Assembly: GCA_030615855.1 (NCBI GenBank)
Contig: JAUWYL010000010.1
Location: 1 to 37,375 of the forward strand
Reading direction: 5' to 3'
From: a bacterium
GTDB lineage: Bacteria; UBP18; UBA7526
Length of the DNA: 37,375 bases
Shown here: in pieces, positions 9,473-34,390 of the stretch
Layout: each line of letters starts with the position of its first letter
How positions within the stretch are numbered: position 1 is the first letter of the stretch
Notes under the pieces: model-generated
The model's database searches: none
Told to the model about the DNA's origin: nothing
Seen by the model: only the letters and a program-made list of their open reading frames with translations
Made by a program: the position numbers and the translations under genes

Positions 9473-9559
9473 ATCCTTCCCCTCCTTTGCAACCGCAAAA
9501 GCGCAAAATTATAAACAAAAACGCAAAATTAATTTATAGGATTTTTAGTTGCTGTTGAT

Positions 9560-9720
9560 AATCTGCGATCATCTGCGTCTTAATCTGCGCCTTAATCTGC
9601 GCCTTGCTTTTAGTTTTTAGTCTCCGAACTCCGAACTATTAACTCCGAACTAACTTATCTGTGCTCATCTGCGGTCTTTTTCTGTGGCCATCTGTGGTTC
9701 TCATCTGCGGTCATCTGCGT
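9560..9720. repeat. Degenerate ATCTGCG/ATCTGTG tandem repeats with a CTCCGAA sub-array
   Basis: About 9 ATCTG(C/T)G copies. The same motif occurs at ~6165-6209, 8548-8584, 8655-8696 and 32912-32954. Confidence 0.8.
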
Positions 9721-9957: not shown

Positions 9958-10419
9958 TTACCTGATCCTCTTTTTAACGAACTTTACTGCCTTATCAAAT
10001 TCATTAGATGAGATTATCAAATCTACTTTCTTTAGTACTCTCTTGGCACTCTCCTTTATCCTCTTTCCCTCTGCCTTAATCATTACAGCAACGTCTGGTT
10101 TAATATAATCTAAGACGCTCGTTCCTTCAATGATTACTCCCTTGCATCCCGAGACCATTCCCAGGGCAACCTTAAGCGCCCAGCCTAAGTCTTTTCTGGG
10201 AGAACTAACCAAGACCACCTTCTCTGCTCCGGCTTCCTTTAGTAAAGCAGTATCCTTTCCCGGAGCCTCGATCGCCTCCTCTTTAGAAGTGACGGAGATA
10301 TTCTCTTTGGAAACCGTGGTCTTTATTGCTCCGAAGTCCTTCAGACTTTTAAGAATCTTACAGGCCAAAGCGGTCTTCCCCACCCCCTTATGCGCCCCTG
10401 ATATCGTAATAATCTTCAC
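9958..10419 (-). CDS. MobB-like P-loop NTPase
   Basis: ITISGAHKGVGKT Walker A, GKDT, VIIEG. The likely start is GTG at 10419 rather than 10449. Confidence 0.7.
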   Translation of the reverse strand: MKIITISGAHKGVGKTALACKILKSLKDFGAIKTTVSKENISVTSKEEAIEAPGKDTALLKEAGAEKVVLVSSPRKDLGWALKVALGMVSGCKGVIIEGTSVLDYIKPDVAVMIKAEGKRIKESAKRVLKKVDLIISSNEFDKAVKFVKKRIR

Positions 10420-10497
10420 CCCGCACCTTCTACCATCTTCACCCCGCACCCTCTCCTCTCCAAATCCTAACCGCGGACAAGGAAGGGGCGGGGTTCA
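10417..10497. repeat. Second copy of the CACCCCGC...AAGGGGCGGGGTTCA palindromic element
   Basis: Direct sequence similarity to 6961-7019. Confidence 0.7.
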
Positions 10498-10507
10498 TCT
10501 TTATTCC

Positions 10508-10711
10508 TTAGAGAGAGTTGATGTAGCTCTCAATCAATGCTTTTGCCTCTTCTGCCTGCTCTTTTGAAGTTAGAATATCTACCTTACCCATAGGACCTAA
10601 GTGAGGGATATCTGCAGAACGAAGCATTACCAGAATCCCATTCTTCTCCAACAAGTCTTCCAACATCTCGGCAATCGACCTATTCGGTGCAAGGTAAACT
10701 ATTTCCCACAT
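10508..10711 (-). CDS. Small DUF2007-like (PII-fold-like) protein
   Basis: MWEIVYLAPN..IAEMLEDLLEKNGI.V......V.I....E.AEEA pattern. Confidence 0.7.
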   Translation of the reverse strand: MWEIVYLAPNRSIAEMLEDLLEKNGILVMLRSADIPHLGPMGKVDILTSKEQAEEAKALIESYINSL

Positions 10712-10741
10712 TTAATATTTCCCTTCATCTCCCTTTGGATT

Positions 10742-12025
10742 TTAGTTCTGGAATTCTGCAGTTTTTACAGAGATCACTTTTCCGGAACTTACTGAGGAGT
10801 AAAAGATCATGGTGGCAGCAATTACTACTAAGTTAAAAAGAACAACCAAGGCCGTAGTAAAGGGTCTTATGGATAGGTTCATCCAGGGACGCCAAGCTAA
10901 TAAACAGCGTAAGATGTTATCAATTTTAAGGGGAATGAAGAGAATAATAGCCCCGCAGATAATAAAGAAAGAACACTTCACAAAATTCCTCTTCCAGAGG
11001 ATGAAATTAGATTTCAGAGCAGATGAAAATCCCAGACCTTCTTTCACAATTATACAAGGGATGAATATGATAAAAAGGTTAATAATGTGGGGGATAAAAG
11101 TATGATAAAATTGATAAATTTGGAGGAAGCTTCCCGAAGGCCGCCAATAGGTTTTGCCCAGACTAACGGATAGAAGAAAAGGCAATTCAGGGATTAGCAG
11201 GATGACGGCAAGGATTATATGAAAGAGAAACAGAGGTTTAAAATATCTGAGGGCATAAGACATAATCCCAGATCTCATTAATTTCTCACCCTTTATTGCT
11301 CTATCGATAATGGATAATATACCTCCTTCAAGCAATGAAATGAATCCAGCACCGAACCATAGCCCAGGAAGAACCAGGGCCACCGGCCAAGCAGCAAGCT
11401 CTCTGAATTTGCCCCGGCAGAATAAAAACATACCGGCAAAAAATAAGACCGAAAAGACCAAAGAAGGAAGGAGCAATTTATCTACAAATACAACAGATTC
11501 TTTAAGATCGGTTTCTTTGAATCGGTTGAGATATTTCTTTATGAGGCTAATGCCAAACAAAACTATTAAAAAGAATATTATAGCCTCTATTTGATAGTTA
11601 CGGGTTCCAAGGCGAAAGTATTCTAAACCATGCAAGAGAATCTGCCGCCAAGATTTGAATCCCCATATTAATGGTATAATTTTTGTTTTACCTTCTGCTG
11701 CTTCCTCTACAGACTTTGCTATCTTTTCTGCATGCTTGTGATACCAAGAGACACGTATAAGAGCGCCATATAGAAAATTTAATAGGGTAATAAATAAAGG
11801 AACTAAGAATATCCAGATATGTTTTCTGACTATGTAAAAGCCTTCTTTGAACATCAGGAAGTAGGTCTTTATCTTTCGAAACTCTTCATTCTTCTCCCTG
11901 GCAAGCAGTTTACGTAATCCAAGAATAACAATGATTGCTATTACCAAAATTAACAGAATATCCATAAGAATATCTATGGGGGTCAATAGAGCAAACGGCT
12001 GGGTAAAGATTCTTATAGAAGGCAT
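10742..12025 (-). CDS. Multipass membrane protein, paralog of 15276..16553
   Basis: 427 aa with about 8-9 hydrophobic segments; N- and C-termini closely match the paralog. Confidence 0.8.
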   Translation of the reverse strand: MPSIRIFTQPFALLTPIDILMDILLILVIAIIVILGLRKLLAREKNEEFRKIKTYFLMFKEGFYIVRKHIWIFLVPLFITLLNFLYGALIRVSWYHKHAEKIAKSVEEAAEGKTKIIPLIWGFKSWRQILLHGLEYFRLGTRNYQIEAIIFFLIVLFGISLIKKYLNRFKETDLKESVVFVDKLLLPSLVFSVLFFAGMFLFCRGKFRELAAWPVALVLPGLWFGAGFISLLEGGILSIIDRAIKGEKLMRSGIMSYALRYFKPLFLFHIILAVILLIPELPFLLSVSLGKTYWRPSGSFLQIYQFYHTFIPHIINLFIIFIPCIIVKEGLGFSSALKSNFILWKRNFVKCSFFIICGAIILFIPLKIDNILRCLLAWRPWMNLSIRPFTTALVVLFNLVVIAATMIFYSSVSSGKVISVKTAEFQN

Positions 12026-12055
12026 CGATTATTTCCTTTCATTTCCCTTTGGATT

Positions 12056-12631
12056 TTAGTTCTTCAGAGTTAGTGTTATTTCTCTCTCTTTTTCTGGCAC
12101 TCTAAAGACTATTTTCTCATCGGAGAGCCATTTAGCATCTGTCTCAAATCTGTCTGGAGTATTAGTTAATTGGGTTTGATTAGTACCGTCAGCATTTATT
12201 GCCCAGATATCTCGGTTAAATGTCTGGTGGCCGTCCTCCCAAATGATGGAAAAAAGAACCCTTTGCCCATCGGGTGACCAGCGAGGATAGTCGGCATAAG
12301 CATATTCCCTTCCGGTAGAAGACCTAGTACTGGGAATGGTTTCTGGAGTATGGGTTAACTGTTTTTTATTGCTACCGTCAATATTCATCACCCAGATTTC
12401 AGCATTAAAAGTAAATAGTGCCTTCTTCCCATCTGGAGATATTGCTTTCCTTCCTATTGCTTCTAGTGAGATCGGTTTCACTATTTCTATTTTAACCCCT
12501 GGCTTTATTTCAACCTTTTCCATTTCTTTAACTTCTCTTGTTTTTCTGGAAAGATGCCATTGATATCCTCTAATCGCCCCTAATATTAAAATAACGGCTA
12601 AAATTATAAGCAATGTCTTCTTTATCTTCAT
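12056..12631 (-). CDS. Membrane-anchored TolB/PD40-repeat protein
   Basis: SPDGKK and PRWSPDGQR repeats, IW.MN.DG.N..QLT twice, N-terminal TM. Confidence 0.8.
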   Translation of the reverse strand: MKIKKTLLIILAVILILGAIRGYQWHLSRKTREVKEMEKVEIKPGVKIEIVKPISLEAIGRKAISPDGKKALFTFNAEIWVMNIDGSNKKQLTHTPETIPSTRSSTGREYAYADYPRWSPDGQRVLFSIIWEDGHQTFNRDIWAINADGTNQTQLTNTPDRFETDAKWLSDEKIVFRVPEKEREITLTLKN

Positions 12632-13749
12632 TTCCCTTTAGGCTTTAGTTCTTGGATTCGCTTTTTGGCTTTCTCTACTAAGTATTTTTTCTTGGGGTAA
12701 TTATCTATTGCCTTTTGATAGGATTGGATTGCCTGGGGATATTTTTTCTGCTTTTCGTAAAGGCTTCCTATCTCATACTGGTCCATGGGGGCTCGCCTAT
12801 CCTGAGGATAATTCTTTAAAACCTTTTGATAGGTCCTGATAGCTTCTTCATAATTGTTTGTTTCTTTATAGCATTCAGCAAGTCTACGATAAGCAGAGGT
12901 TATCAAAGGGTTCTCCTGACCCTTTTCTATTATCTTCTGGTATGCTTTTATGGCAGGCTCATAATCGTTTAATGCCGGAGAACAATGTTTCTTAATCGTT
13001 GTTGCTGCCATTAGTGCTATTCTATCCTGGGAATAGTTATCAATGACTTTATTGAATTCTATCACGGCCTGTTTGTAATCCCCCCGATCCCTCCAATAGA
13101 TAAAAGCGATATTATATTGAACTAAAGCAGCGAGGTTTACATTTGATGATCCAATAAAATAAGAATGCCGAAACACCCAATCTTCAAAATCATCAAAGTT
13201 ATGTTGAGGATACTTCGCGATAAACTTTCTCATTTCCTTTATTTGCTCATCAGGTTTTTCTTGAAGATAGAGAAACATAATAATAAAGTATTGTGCTTCA
13301 TCAGCCCATTTGCTCTCTGGATGATTGTCAATAACTTCTCGCAGGGATTTTATGGCTCTATTGACTCTTTCTTGCCATTTTTCGTTCTTCTGTACTTGGG
13401 AAATTCTGGCCTCTAACACTTCCTGTGGCGGAATCTCAATTCTTGGATGGGTTTTAGACTCTCTGATTTTTGGATAAGGACAACGAACATATCTGGCGAT
13501 ATCATTATTGATCCTAATGGCATACTTAAAATGCTCCTCTGGAGTCCTCGGCCTCTTTAGATATTTAATCCCCCAGTAGAGGTTCGACCTTAAACAATTA
13601 TACTCTACCATTCGCTTCAGTTTCTTATGGGGATATTCCATAGATTTCAAATTGGTAAAGAAACTATTTACCCAATAGCTCCATCCTACAATGGCTAGAA
13701 CTCCAATGCTCAACAGAATAATTAATCTTTTCTTAGTAGGCTTCCTCAC
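12628..13749 (-). CDS. Membrane-anchored TPR protein (BamD/YbgF-like repeats)
   Basis: Repeated A...Y.K.I.NYP TPR motifs. The likely start is GTG at 13749, with the RBS AAAGGGGG coming from the degenerate junction repeat. Confidence 0.8.
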   Translation of the reverse strand: MRKPTKKRLIILLSIGVLAIVGWSYWVNSFFTNLKSMEYPHKKLKRMVEYNCLRSNLYWGIKYLKRPRTPEEHFKYAIRINNDIARYVRCPYPKIRESKTHPRIEIPPQEVLEARISQVQKNEKWQERVNRAIKSLREVIDNHPESKWADEAQYFIIMFLYLQEKPDEQIKEMRKFIAKYPQHNFDDFEDWVFRHSYFIGSSNVNLAALVQYNIAFIYWRDRGDYKQAVIEFNKVIDNYSQDRIALMAATTIKKHCSPALNDYEPAIKAYQKIIEKGQENPLITSAYRRLAECYKETNNYEEAIRTYQKVLKNYPQDRRAPMDQYEIGSLYEKQKKYPQAIQSYQKAIDNYPKKKYLVEKAKKRIQELKPKGK

Positions 13750-13798
13750 TCGTCCCCCTTTAGACTTCAGCAAGCGAAATAAATAATAGTAAATATAG

Positions 13799-15262
13799 TT
13801 ATGAATTTGGCTGTAAGGGATGCCTTTCTCTGAATTTTATTGCTTTAATTCGCTTATCTACTTGCCGTTGAGCAGACCAACTATCTGGATATTTACTCTT
13901 TAATGTCTGATAAGTGGCAATTGCCTTTTGGTGTTCGCCCTTTTCTTCGTAGCACTCTCCAATCTTAAAGTAAGCCTCAGCGACATTATGGGCTTCGGGA
14001 TAATCTTCTATGAATTTCTGGTAGGCTTCTATTGCCTTATCAAATTCTCCTAATTTCTGATAGCACTCTCCAATTCTAAATTGAGAATGGATAGTCTGAA
14101 ATTTCTTAAGCGCTTTCTGGTAGTTTCTTTCAGGAAAAAAGAAGATTCGCCCTAAGCCAGCGTGGGCTGATACCGCTTCTTTGCTTTTTGGATACTCATT
14201 TATAATCTTTTGGTAGGTTTCTTTAGCTTCTTCATACATCCGTAGTTGTCTATAGATTCTGCCCAAGTTTAGATAGATTCCCGGAATGCGGGTAGGGTCT
14301 TGCTTCTCAGTAAGTTCTTTCTTAAGCCTATAGATTTCTTCCCTCCTCCACCAATCGCTTCCCCATTTAGATTCCACCTTGGTGATTTTCCAGAGACCAC
14401 TCTTCTTAGTAAGGGTAAAATCAGCATGACCATAGTGCCTTGTAGGAACTTTGGTCTCTCCTTTTACTAAAATAGACTTCCATTGGAAGTGAGTATTTAC
14501 CCTTGCCTTGTCGTCTTCGAACCAGATACTATCCCAAGGATTCAAGAAGAGGGGAAAGGCGACTAATTTAAGGGAGATTTGCTCATGATTGTCAAAATAA
14601 TCTTTTAAGACTATTCTCTGTATTTCTCTGGGCTCAGCAAAGCAGAATAGATATGAATCAATGTCTTCGTTTTCAAAGGCTTTTACATAAGAATCAAGAA
14701 ATTTCAAAATCGGGGCTGCTCTTACTTCTCTTATTATAATACGAGAAACAACAGTTCCTATGATTAAGAGCATTATGATTAAAAGAGAAAGTTTAACTTT
14801 TCTATTCAGCCTTTTTATGCCTCTTATAATAATGGCCGGGAAAGAAAAGAGAAAGTATAGAGCTAAATAACTCCATAAGACCCAGCCGAAGTTTACACCC
14901 AAATCCAGATACCAAATAGTAGTAATATCTTCATGATATACTCCCCATAAAAACGAATAGATATAGTTATTGAAACGAAATAGGCCAATCAAAATAATCA
15001 GAGTAATAAAAGATGTTATTCCTAAAATCTTGGTCTTTCGTCTTGCTGACAAGAAAGCAATCCAAGCAGCCACACAGATTACAAGGTTACTGAGAAAAAG
15101 GGATACTATTACCAATATATTTTTGGTCTGCCAATAATGACGATATGCTTCCCAGCTGCCTAATATAACTATTCCAAATATGGCAAGAAAGGCTAAGGCA
15201 GATAAGATTATTAACCAGCGTGGTTTGAGCAGACTTTTAAGGTGTCCTTTTTTCATCTTCAT
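13799..15262 (-). CDS. Membrane protein with NTF2-like domain and C-terminal TPRs
   Basis: About 5 N-terminal TMs, a Y..AFE.EDID.Y...WKI NTF2-like segment, and TPR repeats. Confidence 0.75.
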   Translation of the reverse strand: MKMKKGHLKSLLKPRWLIILSALAFLAIFGIVILGSWEAYRHYWQTKNILVIVSLFLSNLVICVAAWIAFLSARRKTKILGITSFITLIILIGLFRFNNYIYSFLWGVYHEDITTIWYLDLGVNFGWVLWSYLALYFLFSFPAIIIRGIKRLNRKVKLSLLIIMLLIIGTVVSRIIIREVRAAPILKFLDSYVKAFENEDIDSYLFCFAEPREIQRIVLKDYFDNHEQISLKLVAFPLFLNPWDSIWFEDDKARVNTHFQWKSILVKGETKVPTRHYGHADFTLTKKSGLWKITKVESKWGSDWWRREEIYRLKKELTEKQDPTRIPGIYLNLGRIYRQLRMYEEAKETYQKIINEYPKSKEAVSAHAGLGRIFFFPERNYQKALKKFQTIHSQFRIGECYQKLGEFDKAIEAYQKFIEDYPEAHNVAEAYFKIGECYEEKGEHQKAIATYQTLKSKYPDSWSAQRQVDKRIKAIKFRERHPLQPNS

Positions 15263-15275
15263 TGGCCTTTGGATT

Positions 15276-16553
15276 TTAGTTCTTGGATTCTTCAGCTTTT
15301 AGAGAAATTACTTTTCTTGAAGTTACTGAGGAGTAAAAGATCATGGTGGCGGCAATTAGTATTAAATTAACAAAGGTCAACAATAAAGTTGTAAATAAAG
15401 GGCCTAATAGACCTATTCCTATAGGCGTGGTAACCAACCGTCTTATTGAACTAGAAATTATAAAGGGAATCAATAATATAGCCGCTCCACAAAAAATAAA
15501 AACAACGATCTTGGCAAAATGGTTTTTCCAGAAAAGAAAATTTTCTTTGAGTGCCGGTTTAAAGTTCAGGCTTTTACTAACAATAATATAGGGTATAAAG
15601 AGGACCAAAAGATAAAGGAGAGGCATTATAAAATCAACATAGGCTCTGGATAAATGTTGGGTAAATAATCTTATATATTCACTGTAACTAAATATACGTA
15701 ACCTCAAAATACCAGGTAAAATAAAAATCCATGTAACTATAGCAAGAAATAAATGGAGCATAAACAAAGGTCTAAAATGTCTGAGAATATCTGAAATAAT
15801 ATTACTCTTTGTAACTTCTTTTTTATTTATTATTCTTTCAACTGTTCCTAATATTCCAGCCATAACTAGAGTGAGCAAAATAATACTAAACCAAGAAAGG
15901 AATGGAGTCAAAAGGATTAGGTTTTTTGGAAAAAAGGGACAAGAGATGCGAAGTATAATACTTATTAATATTCCTAAGGCAATAGCAGAAGAAAGAGGCA
16001 ATATCTTTTTGATAAATGATACAGATTCTTTAAGTTCAGGTGCTTCACTTTTGTCCAAATATCTTTTAATATATCTTCCTCCTAAAAGAACTACTAAAAC
16101 AAGTAATAGGGGTACCAAACGACCTTGGCTACGAAATTGAAAATATTTTAAAGAAGAAGGGATAACCCTTCTAATAGTCAATAGTAAAAAGTGCCATAAA
16201 CTACTAAAAAACCCTCTCCAGCCTATCCCTTGAGGAAGTCTCTCCTTATAAATTTTAAGCCAATGAATATGCATAAGGCTACTATACAGGCAATCAGTTA
16301 AATTTATAAAAAGAGGTATTAGTACCAACCAGATGTATTTTTCCAACATACGGAATCCGTCCCGAAACATTAGGAAGTAGGTCTTTATTTTTCGGAACTC
16401 TTCGTTCTTCTCCTTAGCAAGTAGTCTAGCAAGTAGTTTGTGCAATCCAATAATAGCGAGGGCTACTATTACTAAAATTAACAAAACTTTCATGAGAATA
16501 TCTATGGGGGTCATTAAAGCAGTGGGTTGAGTAAAGATTCTTATAGGAGGCAT
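15276..16553 (-). CDS. Multipass membrane protein, paralog of 10742..12025
   Basis: MPPIRIFTQP...KNEEFRKIKTYFLMF and IAATMIFYSSV are shared with the paralog. Confidence 0.8.
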   Translation of the reverse strand: MPPIRIFTQPTALMTPIDILMKVLLILVIVALAIIGLHKLLARLLAKEKNEEFRKIKTYFLMFRDGFRMLEKYIWLVLIPLFINLTDCLYSSLMHIHWLKIYKERLPQGIGWRGFFSSLWHFLLLTIRRVIPSSLKYFQFRSQGRLVPLLLVLVVLLGGRYIKRYLDKSEAPELKESVSFIKKILPLSSAIALGILISIILRISCPFFPKNLILLTPFLSWFSIILLTLVMAGILGTVERIINKKEVTKSNIISDILRHFRPLFMLHLFLAIVTWIFILPGILRLRIFSYSEYIRLFTQHLSRAYVDFIMPLLYLLVLFIPYIIVSKSLNFKPALKENFLFWKNHFAKIVVFIFCGAAILLIPFIISSSIRRLVTTPIGIGLLGPLFTTLLLTFVNLILIAATMIFYSSVTSRKVISLKAEESKN

Positions 16554-16597
16554 CGACTACTTCCTTTCATTTCCCTTTGGATTTTAGTTCTCTGGAA

Positions 16598-17509
16598 TTA
16601 TTTTACTAAGGAGGGATTAGATTTATATCGATGTATTCTTATTTTCGTTTCTATCCTTTTTAGGGAATCAACAGATTCTATGAAAAAATCATCGTAGGAT
16701 ATTTTCAGTTTTCTTACTGTCTTTAATGGAATGCTATCAATGTTTGTAATCTGCTTAAGTTCCTGTTTCTCCTTATCAAATCTTATGATTCCATCTCCTC
16801 CAGTTCCAATCCATAGAAAACATTCATCAGCCACTAATGGTCCAGGACCTTTATAAATATTGGCTGGGACGTAAACTATAAAATGGGTGTTTTTACTTTT
16901 ATTATATCCTATTACTGGCCCTTTAAAATAGCCTGTCCATACATAGTCTCCATCCACAATTTCTCCAGTCTTAGAAACGTCTAAACGACTTTCACCAAGA
17001 TATTGCCGTATCTTTACTTTACCACTTTTAATGTAGCCGTTATCTTTTAGCCACTGGGCATGTTCTATCCCATGGTTATATTTACATTTCTTAAACTCTT
17101 TTATTGCTTTATCATACTCTCCTACATTAATATAAGATTGACCAAAAATAAAATAACGGTTCTCCTCGTTCTTTAATTTGATACCGCTCTTATTAAAGCA
17201 GCTAATATATTTCTCTAACATCTTTATTTTTTCACTTGGTAAACAATATCCACCTGATCCGCTGTGGCCACCTATAATATGATATTCTAATCTGTAATAT
17301 GCCTCGGTGGCAATTTTACTCTCCGGATAATTGTCTAAAATCCTTTGATAAATCTCTACCGCCTGATGGCGTGTATCATAGTTTTTCCAGAGTTTTTCTG
17401 CTTCGTTATATAACTTTTCAGCTTCTGAAATTGCAGCAGATTCTTCAATATAGATAAAAGAAGAAACTAAAAATATCAAGATTACTGAAATTATTAAACT
17501 ATGCTTCAT
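16598..17509 (-). CDS. Secreted TPR-containing protein with beta-rich C-terminus
   Basis: Likely start MKHSL at 17509 after the RBS AAGGAA. Signal peptide, YQRILDNYPES TPR, LWIGTGGDG motif. Confidence 0.75.
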   Translation of the reverse strand: MKHSLIISVILIFLVSSFIYIEESAAISEAEKLYNEAEKLWKNYDTRHQAVEIYQRILDNYPESKIATEAYYRLEYHIIGGHSGSGGYCLPSEKIKMLEKYISCFNKSGIKLKNEENRYFIFGQSYINVGEYDKAIKEFKKCKYNHGIEHAQWLKDNGYIKSGKVKIRQYLGESRLDVSKTGEIVDGDYVWTGYFKGPVIGYNKSKNTHFIVYVPANIYKGPGPLVADECFLWIGTGGDGIIRFDKEKQELKQITNIDSIPLKTVRKLKISYDDFFIESVDSLKRIETKIRIHRYKSNPSLVK

Positions 17510-17628
17510 TTCCTTTTCCCTTTGGATTTTGGTCCTTTCATTTATTGTCTTGCATATTTGCAAAGTGCCGAAGGTATTCGGGTAAGTGCCGTAAGACACG
17601 AACCTTTTATGCTGTGTTATATACTGTT

Positions 17629-17976
17629 TTAATCGATAACAGCATAATCGAGATATAATTTTGAGAGCTCAACAATAATATCATTAGGATTCTCAAAGTC
17701 ATTCTTATTTTCGTCGGATGCCTTAAACACTAAGTCGATCTTGATATAAGGGGAACTCTTATGGGTATACGTCACATGCGTTCTAGTATAAATACCACCC
17801 TGAATTGTAAAATTTTTAAGAACCTCCGCTCTTTTCATACCAGGTTTTAACTGACGATAATTAGATATTACCTTGAGTAATTTTTTATCGAAATCAAATT
17901 CCTTTTGGCAAGAGGTTAGCGAGATAATGGAAAAAATAAATATGGTTGAAATGACAATATAAAATAATTTTTTCAT
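17629..17976 (-). CDS. Small lipoprotein, probable integron-cassette origin
   Basis: MKKLF start with GAGGAGG RBS, lipobox LTSC, flanked by attC-like core sites. Confidence 0.7.
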   Translation of the reverse strand: MKKLFYIVISTIFIFSIISLTSCQKEFDFDKKLLKVISNYRQLKPGMKRAEVLKNFTIQGGIYTRTHVTYTHKSSPYIKIDLVFKASDENKNDFENPNDIIVELSKLYLDYAVID

Positions 17977-18029
17977 GGTTCCTCCTCTCAAGATTAAAAT
18001 GGTGTATAACTCCTCTTATATGAACTTTC

Positions 18030-18686
18030 TCATTTCCCTTTGGATTTTATTTCTTCTTCTTGAATATATTTTTGCTTCCGATTTTCACACTCTTTTAAGT
18101 ACTTGGAATAAGAACCTTTAAAGTAAGCCCAATATTCTCCTAGAGTGCCCTTACCGGGACTTTCTTTATAAAGCCACTTTTCCGCTTTCTCAATATCAGC
18201 AGAAGTGCCGTGAAAGGTACAAATAACAACCGGCCATTCTGTACCCCACTCGCTACTAGGCATTATTATGTATTCTCGTCCACTTGGACATTTACTATAA
18301 CGTGATTTTAAATATTCCCCATCAACTAATTCAGTTGCTCCACTGGGAAGTTCAGAGTAGAAATGATCTTTCTGCCATTTCTCAACAGCCATATGGATGG
18401 CATACATATTATGGTCACAATCCACCAAATCCCAATGGACTGGGGCAATTTTAGCAAATAACACATAAAATAAGTAAGCCCCTATAATTAATGAAACAAC
18501 TAAGATAATAAGTGGAATCTTAATTATTTTTCTCATCTTTTTTCTTATTAAAGATACCAGTCCAAGGATAACCGCCAAAGGCACGCAGATAAAGCCAACC
18601 CACAGGAACAAACCATTCGCAGAGGGACCGTATGATAGTATTGCAATGATGCCGATTACTCCCAATAATAAACTGGCAATACCCAT
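18030..18686 (-). CDS. Membrane protein with pilin/ComGC-like C-terminal domain
   Basis: Three TMs followed by C..N...I..AVE.W..D, CPSG.EY and VIC..HG; no prepilin cleavage motif. Confidence 0.6.
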   Translation of the reverse strand: MGIASLLLGVIGIIAILSYGPSANGLFLWVGFICVPLAVILGLVSLIRKKMRKIIKIPLIILVVSLIIGAYLFYVLFAKIAPVHWDLVDCDHNMYAIHMAVEKWQKDHFYSELPSGATELVDGEYLKSRYSKCPSGREYIIMPSSEWGTEWPVVICTFHGTSADIEKAEKWLYKESPGKGTLGEYWAYFKGSYSKYLKECENRKQKYIQEEEIKSKGK

Positions 18687-18687
18687 T

Positions 18688-19533
18688 CTATCCCTTCATC
18701 TTCAGGCTTACTTGATAGACTTCTCTTTTGGGGATTCTCCGTAATTGGGCGACTCTTTTGGTGGCCTCTTTTTTGGAGAGGTTCTCCTCTCTCATCACTA
18801 ATTTCAGATGGTCGAGGATTGGTAAATTCTGCCACTTCTCTTTTAAGATCTCTTTCTCTTGAGCACCTTTTAAGATAATGGTGAATTCTCCCTTTGGCTT
18901 AACAAACTTCTCTATCGCTTCGCTTGTCCTTCCTCTGAATGTCTCTTCAAACTTCTTGGTCAGTTCCCTGGTCAGAGAGACTTCCCTATCCCCTAAAACC
19001 TCCAGAATATCCTTTAAGGCAGGAATCAATCGATGGGGTGCTTCGTAGAAGATAATGGTTCTTGTCTCAGACTTTAATTCCTTTAACTTGTCACATCTTG
19101 CCTTCTTCCTAGAGGGAAGGAATCCCCCGAAGATGAAACTGTCTGTAGGAAGGCCGGAGATGACTAAGGAAGAGATTAAAGCAGTTGGGCCAGGAATAGG
19201 AATAATAGAAATATTCTCTTTTAATACTTTCTGGATAATAAAATAGCCCGGATCAGATATTCCGGGCATCCCGGCATCAGAGACCAGGGCAATATTCTTC
19301 CCTTCTTTTAATCTCCTAATTAAGAAATCAGCCTTGGTTATCTTATTATGTTCAAAGTAAGAAGTTAACGGGGTATGGATATTGTATCTACTTAATAGTT
19401 TCCTTGTCCTTCTTGTATCCTCACAGGCTATCAGGTCGACTTCTCTTAAGATTCTTAAGGCTCTTAGAGTAATATCCTCTAAGTTCCCAATAGGTGTTCC
19501 CACGATATAAAGAATGCCTGATCCATGATCCAT
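18688..19533 (-). CDS. rsmI: 16S rRNA C1402 2'-O-methyltransferase
   Basis: TPIGNLEDITLRA, CEDTR, SDAGMPGISDPG, FYEAPHR, RELTK.FE. Confidence 0.96.
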   Translation of the reverse strand: MDHGSGILYIVGTPIGNLEDITLRALRILREVDLIACEDTRRTRKLLSRYNIHTPLTSYFEHNKITKADFLIRRLKEGKNIALVSDAGMPGISDPGYFIIQKVLKENISIIPIPGPTALISSLVISGLPTDSFIFGGFLPSRKKARCDKLKELKSETRTIIFYEAPHRLIPALKDILEVLGDREVSLTRELTKKFEETFRGRTSEAIEKFVKPKGEFTIILKGAQEKEILKEKWQNLPILDHLKLVMREENLSKKEATKRVAQLRRIPKREVYQVSLKMKG

Positions 19534-34134: not shown

Positions 34135-34390
34135 TATTAGTAATCAGTGATCGGTGACCAGTACCTCGCTATCGCTCGGAGTAAGAAAGTATCAAAGTAG
34201 GAAAGTAATGGCTGGGAATGGGTAGTAAGTAGTGAGTCGGGTAGTGAGTAGTGGGGGTGGGGTAAAGAGACCTCACAACTCACCCCCACAACTCGACTCA
34301 CAACCCATAACTCACCCTCATCCTTTGCTGTTACTCTCTTACTCTTCTTCTCTTCTACTTCTCTACTTTTCTATTGGTTACTGGTTACTA
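34135..34390. repeat. Intergenic degenerate heptamer repeats arranged as a long inverted hairpin
   Basis: G-rich GAGT/GGGT units mirrored by ACTCAC/ACCC units, followed by TGGTTAC units overlapping the cysK stop. Confidence 0.65.

Follow-up and report, generated by a model that had tools for sequence, protein, structure and literature searches.

How does a bacterial chromosome come to hold a row of envelope-protein genes in which one short sequence recurs at every gene junction? The question is raised by a 37,375-nucleotide (nt) stretch of DNA, here called the window, which spans positions 1 to 37,375 of contig JAUWYL010000010.1 (assembly GCA_030615855.1; GTDB lineage Bacteria; UBP18; UBA7526). 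The source organism is an uncultured sediment bacterium, and its assembly, referred to as G000, comprises 1,375,042 bases on 45 contigs and is 93.6% complete. Read on the minus strand, the locus consists of rsmI, eight genes designated A to H, a gene of family DUF2007 and MobB, in that order, and its junctions share a direct repeat whose core is AAAATCCAAAGGGAAATGA and whose long form extends over about 32–45 nt. With moderate confidence, we interpret the array as the product of homology-driven cassette shuffling at a reused junction that combines a stop codon, a ribosome-binding site and a start codon.

A junction repeat confined to one array

Searching the window with the 24-mer GAACTAAAATCCAAAGGGAAATGA at ≤3 mismatches returned six matches, all on the minus strand, at positions 10725, 12039, 12628, 15259, 16567 and 18030; dinucleotide-preserving shuffles give a chance expectation of 0.00. 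A repeat finder recovered a seven-copy family, adding a variant at 17512 with a 5-nt insertion ahead of the ATG, and an eighth, degenerate copy occupies the E|F junction (13746–13767, AAGTCTAAAGGGGGACGAGTGA). The full form reads (C)AAAAAG.GAATCCAAGAACT-AAAATCCAAAGGGAAATGA, sometimes followed by AAGGAAAT, and is longer than the motif reported in the initial annotation of the window, which had counted eight occurrences, one for each array gene. That count holds as seven good copies and one decayed copy, with B's copy lying 86 nt past B's stop. In the whole assembly, matches to a 32-mer at ≤8 substitutions are confined to seven array positions, and a 19-mer at ≤2 mismatches finds, in addition to the array copies, one match at 1401 that lies inside another gene and is without the repeat's flanking part. 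The genome-wide search proposed with the first description of the motif therefore reveals copies confined to the array and no scatter. A genome-wide dispersed repeat is ruled out by the lack of copies outside the locus, and judged as a miniature inverted-repeat transposable element or repetitive extragenic palindrome, the sequence has no inverted repeat or palindrome and all seven copies lie in one locus.

For comparison, we used the six species genomes of the phylum in the collection searched (G000 included), five of which are only 53–85% complete, together with four metagenome contigs from further relatives (L061, L064, L068 and L069) and the assembled contigs of four sequencing runs (X1, the source run, and X2, X3 and X4). 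G001 and G002 belong to the same genus as G000, and G004 to another genus. Searched at ≤3 mismatches, a setting at which decayed copies may be missed, four of the five other phylum genomes contain the repeat, and no copy was found in G003 (82% complete). Altogether, 21 copies and one decayed copy were collected from nine sources, the repeat being reused at eight junctions in G000 and at 14 junctions in the eight other sources. An exact 19-mer search of metagenomes, which misses diverged copies, returned 25 loci, four of them the relatives and the other 21 single matches. A degenerate 23-mer matched 29 stretches in the genome collection, of which 28 are singles in unrelated taxa, and two copies occur only in a record equal to contig C155 of G004. 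Viral contigs gave 12 single matches to a 17-mer, which we take to be chance and not a sign of a phage carrier.

The A|B copy (18030..18061, minus strand like all array features) supplies the TGA at which A ends (…EIKSKGK*), and the start of B, 53 nt further on, has a GAGGAGG site of its own. The B|C copy (17512..17543), the variant …AAAGGGAAAAGGAAATG, is separated from B's stop by a different, dispersed repeat (17576..17619), and C's ATG is at 17509 (MKHS), 5 nt later than a start at the repeat's own ATG. At C|D (16567..16598), the stop of C falls at the left edge of the repeat, outside the core, and D's ATG lies 14 nt after the repeat. D ends at the TAA of the D|E copy (15259..15290; …ESKN*), and E starts at the ATG of that copy (MKMKK). 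Beyond the decayed E|F copy, F ends at the TGA of the F|G copy (12628..12659; …ELKPKGK*), where stop and start overlap as ATGA and G starts at the repeat's ATG (MKIKK). G ends (…LKN*) at the AAC-TAA of the G|H copy (12039..12070), and H starts 14 nt after the repeat. H itself ends at the TAA (…FQN*) of the H|DUF2007 copy (10725..10756), which marks the right edge of the variable region, is retained in relatives with an 'empty' interval and is followed 14 nt on by the start of the DUF2007 gene. The initial annotation had stated that unrelated upstream genes end inside the motif in different frames and that the motif supplies the next start. The first part is borne out by A and F, which use TGA, and by D, G and H, which use AAC-TAA, and does not extend to B and C, the stop of B lying upstream of its copy; the second agrees with the starts of G and E at the repeat's own ATG and of C 5 nt later.

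Across the 21 copies, the right half AAAATCCAAAGGGAAATGA is always present, and in 17 of them the next gene starts at its ATG or ≤17 nt on. The left half GAATCCAAGAACT, often after AAAAAG, is found in about 12 of 21, and the stop of the upstream gene falls inside the repeat in 11 (TAA in 7, TGA in 4; nine sources). An AAAGGG tract lies 3 nt ahead of the repeat's ATG, and the stops of D, G and H fall 16–19 nt before this ATG. The tract is not the organism's general ribosome site, which is usually AAGGAGG (enriched words AAGGAG/AGGAGG); AAAGGG occurs in only 26 of 866 upstream regions. Translated in frame, the long form gives KKRIQELK(S/P)KGK*, the natural tail of TPR gene F; the final 13 codons of F (KKRIQELKPKGK*) constitute this long form, and D and H read the repeat one frame over. 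Because the repeat is found in two reading frames and also in non-coding spacers, it probably acts at the level of DNA or RNA and not as a peptide. The repeat is the end of one gene joined to the start region of the next, copied from junction to junction, and, judged from its sequence, the junction would work in translation.

Gene content at the repeat in relatives

Between rsmI and the DUF2007 gene, G001 has no gene, G002 one and G000 eight, and L069 and L068 have other genes, so that the comparison across relatives called for by the initial annotation finds a gene order that is not fixed. The rsmI flank is 85–92% identical in G001, G002 and L069, where it adjoins DUF2007 or other genes, and the DUF2007 gene is 90–94% identical in G001 and G002, where it stands directly after the repeat. 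G001 carries rsmI, 64 nt, one copy of the repeat's right half and DUF2007, with no array. In G002, a DUF4190 gene of 76 amino acids (aa) occupies the interval and has the repeat's TAA as its stop; it is a homolog (33% identity) of A's N-terminus, the only part of A that resembles DUF4190 proteins, and this N-terminus is 45% identical to an A-like gene of L068. In both genomes, the right breakpoint is at the repeat, with homology restarting there, and in the rsmI|DUF2007 comparisons the right break falls at …CT|AAAATCC. In L069, the interval holds a YdjM-like membrane gene whose …NIQELKSKGK* end falls in the repeat; a different DUF2007 gene and an ArsR gene come next, ahead of MobB. L068 has four array genes with the repeat behind each (a gene X, a TPR gene, a DUF4190-T2SSG gene and a membrane gene of 230 aa), and closes with the same DUF2007/ArsR/MobB end as L069. 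In relatives, the repeat also borders unrelated cargo (YdjM-like, T2SSG, FG-GAP neighbour and lipoprotein genes). Among the sequencing runs, contigs of X2 and X3 represent the empty form, joining window positions 10743->18701 and 10742->18707. An X2 contig with a joint 13739->15266 (25 letters on the short side) has an F homolog preceded by a good repeat copy and does not show deletion of E, and in an X4 contig a B homolog has other DNA downstream, the break lying at the dispersed repeat at 17576–17619 and not at the junction repeat.

A second variable locus, between proC and yggT, places one cassette at two sites. This interval is empty and repeat-free in G000 (contig C30, ~92,010), G002 and G003, where AAAAGGTAAAG…ATG is retained. 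On C155 of G004, gene G sits between proC and yggT with a long-form repeat ahead and a copy behind, and is 91% identical to the window's gene G at the nucleotide level and 87% at the amino-acid level. As the empty sites are without the repeat, the copy behind gene G in G004 is not yggT's own leader and arrived with the gene. The 91% identity of gene G between G000 and G004 lies above that of neighbouring core genes (78–86%), a hint that the gene may have been transferred later. In G001, the same interval is filled by a lipoprotein gene of 289 aa, for which a copy supplies the starting ATG; no copy follows the gene.

Further contexts extend these observations. In L064, an H homolog (88% identical) has gene X and a TPR gene as its neighbours and is flanked by the repeat on both sides. 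Over 650 nt of X, L064 and L068 share 95% identity, and immediately beyond the repeat no similarity is left. The leader of a DUF4190-T2SSG gene upstream of leuS in G005 is a copy of the repeat, and GAACTAAAATC of the repeat recurs within the gene's own end (…HELKSE*). Gene gain, loss, replacement and relocation show breakpoints at the repeat or within ~20 nt of it.

Several junctions retain traces of how such changes may have occurred. In L068, from which gene G is absent, the first 15 nt of G (with ATG changed to ATA) remain behind the repeat. The tail of F, ~40 nt, is found without the body of the F gene behind X (L064 and L068), proC (G001 and G004) and a gene Z (L068), and is fused in frame to the YdjM-like gene in L069. 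At the X|H junction of L064, an AAAGCC variant and a long left part, both as in the F|G copy, are joined to a right part like that of the G|H copy, the outcome expected if gene G had been deleted between its two copies. Beside its junction, the L064 copy of H matches, within codons ~26–65, G000's paralog D at 16 sites and its own ortholog H at 8, and the segments flanking these codons give D versus H agreement of 2:11 and 0:17; by this measure, the segment is a gene-conversion tract next to the junction. The G remnant in L068, the X|H mosaic and the conversion tract in L064 point to exchange of a homology type and not to precise cutting.

Proposed exchange between copies and its alternatives

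We propose that the repeat serves as a portable gene junction. Its right half, AAAATCCAAAGGGAAATGA, would provide an unstructured, A-rich leader with a weak ribosome site and an ATGA stop/start, and its left half, …AAAAAG.GAATCCAAGAACT, would be the end of the gene before it and would stem from the final codons of a TPR gene. As the repeat carries a stop in two of the three frames and a start signal, a gene put between two copies would be terminated and the next gene would still be translated. Since 30–45 nt of near-identical DNA lie in direct orientation at every junction, the general recombination machinery could act on the copies; RecA and a ComEC channel are encoded, and imported DNA may take part. 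Exchange between copies would then delete genes, convert sequence and re-insert genes, possibly by way of a circular intermediate, each gene travelling with one or two junction copies. We infer that recombination between copies makes the changes, and not a dedicated enzyme.

Several points weigh against this explanation. The independent genomes and the separate events are few, and kin are not independent. In an array with the repeat at all of its junctions, any change of a whole gene must break near a copy, so that the association is partly built in. In pairwise BLAST comparisons, 19 of 76 internal block ends lie ≤30 nt from a copy, against 2–7% of positions per sequence, but these blocks are not independent events and many of the other ends fall in diverged flank spacers. 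When we tabulated the edges of gene-content differences ourselves, 8 or 9 of 12 or 13 were at a copy; the repeat is missing from rsmI|A (G000 and G002), from the point inside A where A/A′ homology ends, from the right border of the G001 insert and from the X4 break that follows B. A length of 30–45 nt is short for RecA-dependent exchange. Homologous exchange alone also does not explain the first proC|yggT insertion, because the empty site has no full copy and offers only an AAGAACT match, together with 13 nt of A-rich similarity that flank the insert on either side. Finally, no variant joint, back-joint or circle was found in the source run X1, where the search covered contigs, which break at repeats and drop rare variants.

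It is possible, although we think it doubtful, that selection maintains the repeat purely as a leader for translation or regulation, for instance to couple envelope genes or regulate them together, with ordinary insertions and deletions and flank exchange varying the gene content around a passive sequence. The closeness of the right half to a start codon in 17 of 21 copies favours this account, as does the folding of the junctions. RNA folding detected no hairpin at any of six junctions, with z from −0.24 to +1.71, several being less structured than their shuffles; folding as single-stranded DNA likewise found no hairpin or inverted repeat at four junctions on both strands (8/8; z −0.23 to +1.95). 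Both results exclude a hairpin or attC identity, in agreement with the initial annotation, which had called the repeat non-palindromic. Terminator-like sites do not exceed chance (7 in the region versus 9.0 expected), all lie inside coding sequence and none is at a junction, and none of the promoter-like matches coincides with the repeat. Orthologous copies have diverged at roughly the rate of the coding DNA around them (2 and 5 differences per 35 nt between G000 and G001 or G002), and the rsmI|DUF2007 interval resembles an exchangeable islet flanked by conserved genes. A leader alone fits poorly, however, with the copy downstream of gene G in G004, which is not yggT's, with F-tail remnants where no F gene stands, with the L064/L068 homology that ends exactly at the repeat and with the conversion tract beside it. 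No CsrA-type regulator was found in G000 (93.6% complete), and the single Rfam match, which lies elsewhere, is below threshold (E 0.4), so that no known RNA family is identified. On function, this account is compatible with homology-driven shuffling and differs only on whether the copies drive exchange.

We regard as unlikely a dedicated site-specific system, in which a trans-acting recombinase or nuclease excises and inserts single genes at a non-palindromic junction, in the manner of an integron without hairpins. Such a system would account for the presence of gene G at two loci, each time between two copies, for the rsmI|DUF2007 break that is always at …CT|AAAATCC, for the similar left edge of the long form at several junctions and for an insertion into proC|yggT without a full copy in the empty site, where the 13-nt similarity on both sides could be a target duplication. 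The enzymes argue against it. No integrase, transposase or reverse transcriptase was found among the open reading frames of the window, where the initial annotation had likewise seen no recombinase, or next to any array seen, a result that rests on incomplete assemblies. In the six phylum genomes, RVT_1 is absent (0/6), an IS110-type enzyme occurs only in G003, the genome without the repeat, and only Xer-like tyrosine recombinases are shared by all six (PF00589 frames of 271–353 aa on other contigs; one in G000, at C30:194555). A large serine recombinase is present in one of the six, G000 (C30:183960-184406, L117; open frame of 548 aa). G000 is also the sole genome with an eight-gene array, and one case shows no link. 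The absence of an inverted repeat or hairpin also speaks against such a system, and the 15 nt of G left behind in L068 and the repeat-free edges speak against precise cutting. The recombinase acting in trans that the initial annotation had considered is not supported, as no integrase, reverse transcriptase or IS110 enzyme co-occurs with the repeat; of the gene-capture or shuffling locus it proposed, the variable array with breakpoints at the repeat is supported and the site-specific mechanism is not, the breakpoints being spread over more than a single nucleotide. Quite improbable, too, is a hairpin-free and integrase-free cassette system in which a putative dedicated trans-acting enzyme or guide recognises the junction, envelope genes move to other copies or to junction-like ends (for example, the proC stop) and insertion rebuilds the stop, ribosome site and start.

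That the copies are relics of serial tandem duplication of one ancestral gene pair, with later divergence and replacement leaving the ends alike, can be set aside as very improbable: D and H are paralogs with ends 82–85% identical in nucleotides and C, E and F all have TPR repeats, but A, B and G are unrelated to the rest, contrary to the tandem-homolog explanation that the initial annotation had named as a counter-case, the repeat flanks unrelated genes in relatives and is read in two frames and in spacers, and gene G stands at a different locus with both copies.

Among known systems, the closest analogue of homology-driven shuffling at a junction repeat appears to be the PeSL cassettes of T4-type phages. 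In Arbiol et al. (2010, PMC2839356), repeated promoter/stem-loop motifs flank non-essential genes in a hyperplastic region, and close phages differ by whole genes bounded by the signal. The mechanism proposed there is that exchange deletes a gene as a circle with one chimeric copy, which re-inserts at any other copy with its own expression signals; the PeSL is ~100 bp, combines a sigma-70 promoter with a terminator stem-loop and is transcriptional, and mini-circles are shown (PMC2839356). As in the array, a repeated expression signal bounds variable genes, and relatives differ by the genes it delimits. The junction described here differs in being 30–45 nt long and unstructured and in carrying a stop, ribosome site and start that would act on translation within one transcript. 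It also overlaps coding sequence in two frames and lies on a bacterial chromosome, not in a phage; no stem-loop or terminator-like site was found at the junctions, promoter-like matches do not fall on the repeat, and mini-circles were demonstrated for PeSL.

Integron arrays rely on IntI, attI and attC, attC clusters without an integrase are also known, and attC sites share structure more than sequence. The array resembles them in its co-directional, mostly promoter-less single genes, each followed by one repeat, in its variable content and in the occurrence of one cassette at different places. It differs in having no IntI-type recombinase at or near the arrays, the PF00589 frames being Xer-like and elsewhere, and in a repeat that is no imperfect palindrome, has no fold as single-stranded DNA, is near-identical between cassettes and forms part of coding and start regions. 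Minimal mobile elements of Neisseria exchange via flanking genes and need no internal repeat. Like them, rsmI|DUF2007-MobB and proC|yggT hold alternative genes between the same conserved flanks, which a competent, RecA-proficient cell could exchange; unlike them, a short repeat here marks each gene and travels with it to a second locus. In translational coupling, stop and start overlap (ATGA) with a Shine-Dalgarno site upstream. The ATGA at F|G in G000 and that of the A-like gene and the 230-aa gene in L068, with a purine tract before the start, suggest the same arrangement, but in ordinary coupling unrelated gene pairs share no conserved junction, and here one 30–45-nt sequence is reused. In the literature searched, outside which most subscription journals fall, we found no description of stop/ribosome-site/start junction shuffling in a bacterial chromosome.

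If homology-driven shuffling is correct, one short translational junction acts as a scarless linker on a bacterial chromosome: a bracketed gene would drop into an operon at once terminated, with a ribosome site ahead of it and a working start for the next gene. Because the cargo consists of envelope proteins (TPR, PD40, lipoprotein, pseudopilin-type and multipass membrane proteins), the array may be how these cells, with a 1.4-Mb genome and in a phylum of six known species, vary their surface. Should a dedicated enzyme exist, the array would be a translational counterpart of the integron that varies the cell surface. The locus may also serve as a test case for how little homology suffices for natural gene capture. 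Laboratory recombineering uses arms of 35–50 nt, and the junction repeat is about as long.

Array genes and neighbouring features

All genes of the locus lie on the minus strand. The conserved left flank rsmI (18688..19533) matches Pfam TP_methylase at 1.7e-33. A (18030..18686; 218 aa) has a membrane N-terminus and matches 0 Pfam families, and B (17629..17976; 115 aa) has a lipoprotein-type signal peptide, as read from its sequence, and no Pfam family. C (16598..17509; 303 aa) is a TPR protein with an N-terminal membrane or signal segment, its weak TPR matches all falling under curated cut-offs. D (15276..16553; 425 aa) is a multipass membrane protein with no Pfam family. E (13799..15262; 487 aa) combines a membrane N-terminal part with TPR (families up to 1.5e-30), and F (12628..13749; 373 aa from GTG) is a TPR protein (families up to 1.8e-27). 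G (12056..12631; 191 aa) is a PD40 beta-propeller repeat protein (PD40 at 4e-06), and H (10742..12025; 427 aa) is a multipass membrane protein for which a protein-atlas search gave uncharacterised membrane-protein clusters only, a lead and no more. The conserved right flank (10508..10711) matches Pfam DUF2007 at 2.6e-06 and is followed by MobB. The description of this cargo as envelope proteins in the initial annotation fits the TPR, PD40, lipoprotein and multipass genes; the label 'pilin-like' is not supported for A itself, which has no Pfam family, and A-like genes of relatives carry a T2SSG domain.

The paralogs D and H are 41% identical. Their alike ends correspond to nucleotides 10723–10839/15257–15373 and 11898–12072/16426–16600, and the middle is only ~16–57% identical in protein (30-codon windows). 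Identical codons number 29 of 43 in the first 60 codons and 47 of 104 in the middle, which makes low synonymous divergence at the ends a weak signal that we do not retain. Duplication of D/H partly explains four repeat copies and does not explain the others, and A, B and G are without similarity to other array genes.

Other variable or repeated sequences occur in and around the locus. The dispersed repeat of the B–C spacer (17576..17619, minus strand) has a summed depth about double that of its neighbours, with loose ends at 17576–17585 and 17619 in all four runs. In the window, 10408–10502 is a GC-rich spacer between DUF2007 and MobB in which ATCTTCACCCCGCACC… occurs twice as a 20-nt direct repeat; numerous other contigs of G002, G004 and G005 match it, so that it represents a dispersed element family. 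Window positions 34210–34321 and the G000 contigs C2, C5, C26, C27, C30 and C44 match a dispersed repeat of the ftsZ–proC spacer on C155 of G004, which has tens of copies in every genome of the family. At 9489–9716, contigs of X2–X4 skip ~228–238 nt between a HAD phosphatase gene and a 57-aa open reading frame, which is either an insertion specific to G000 or a deletion in relatives. Between MobB and the HAD gene, G002 (contig C87, L017) has an extra 125-aa gene with three homologs on C30 of G000 (61%, 32% and 34% identity), and it looks like a small multi-copy insert. Near the proC|yggT locus, ~566 nt between yggT and mtnA in G000 (C30:92316-92882) are missing from C155 of G004, where the two genes abut.

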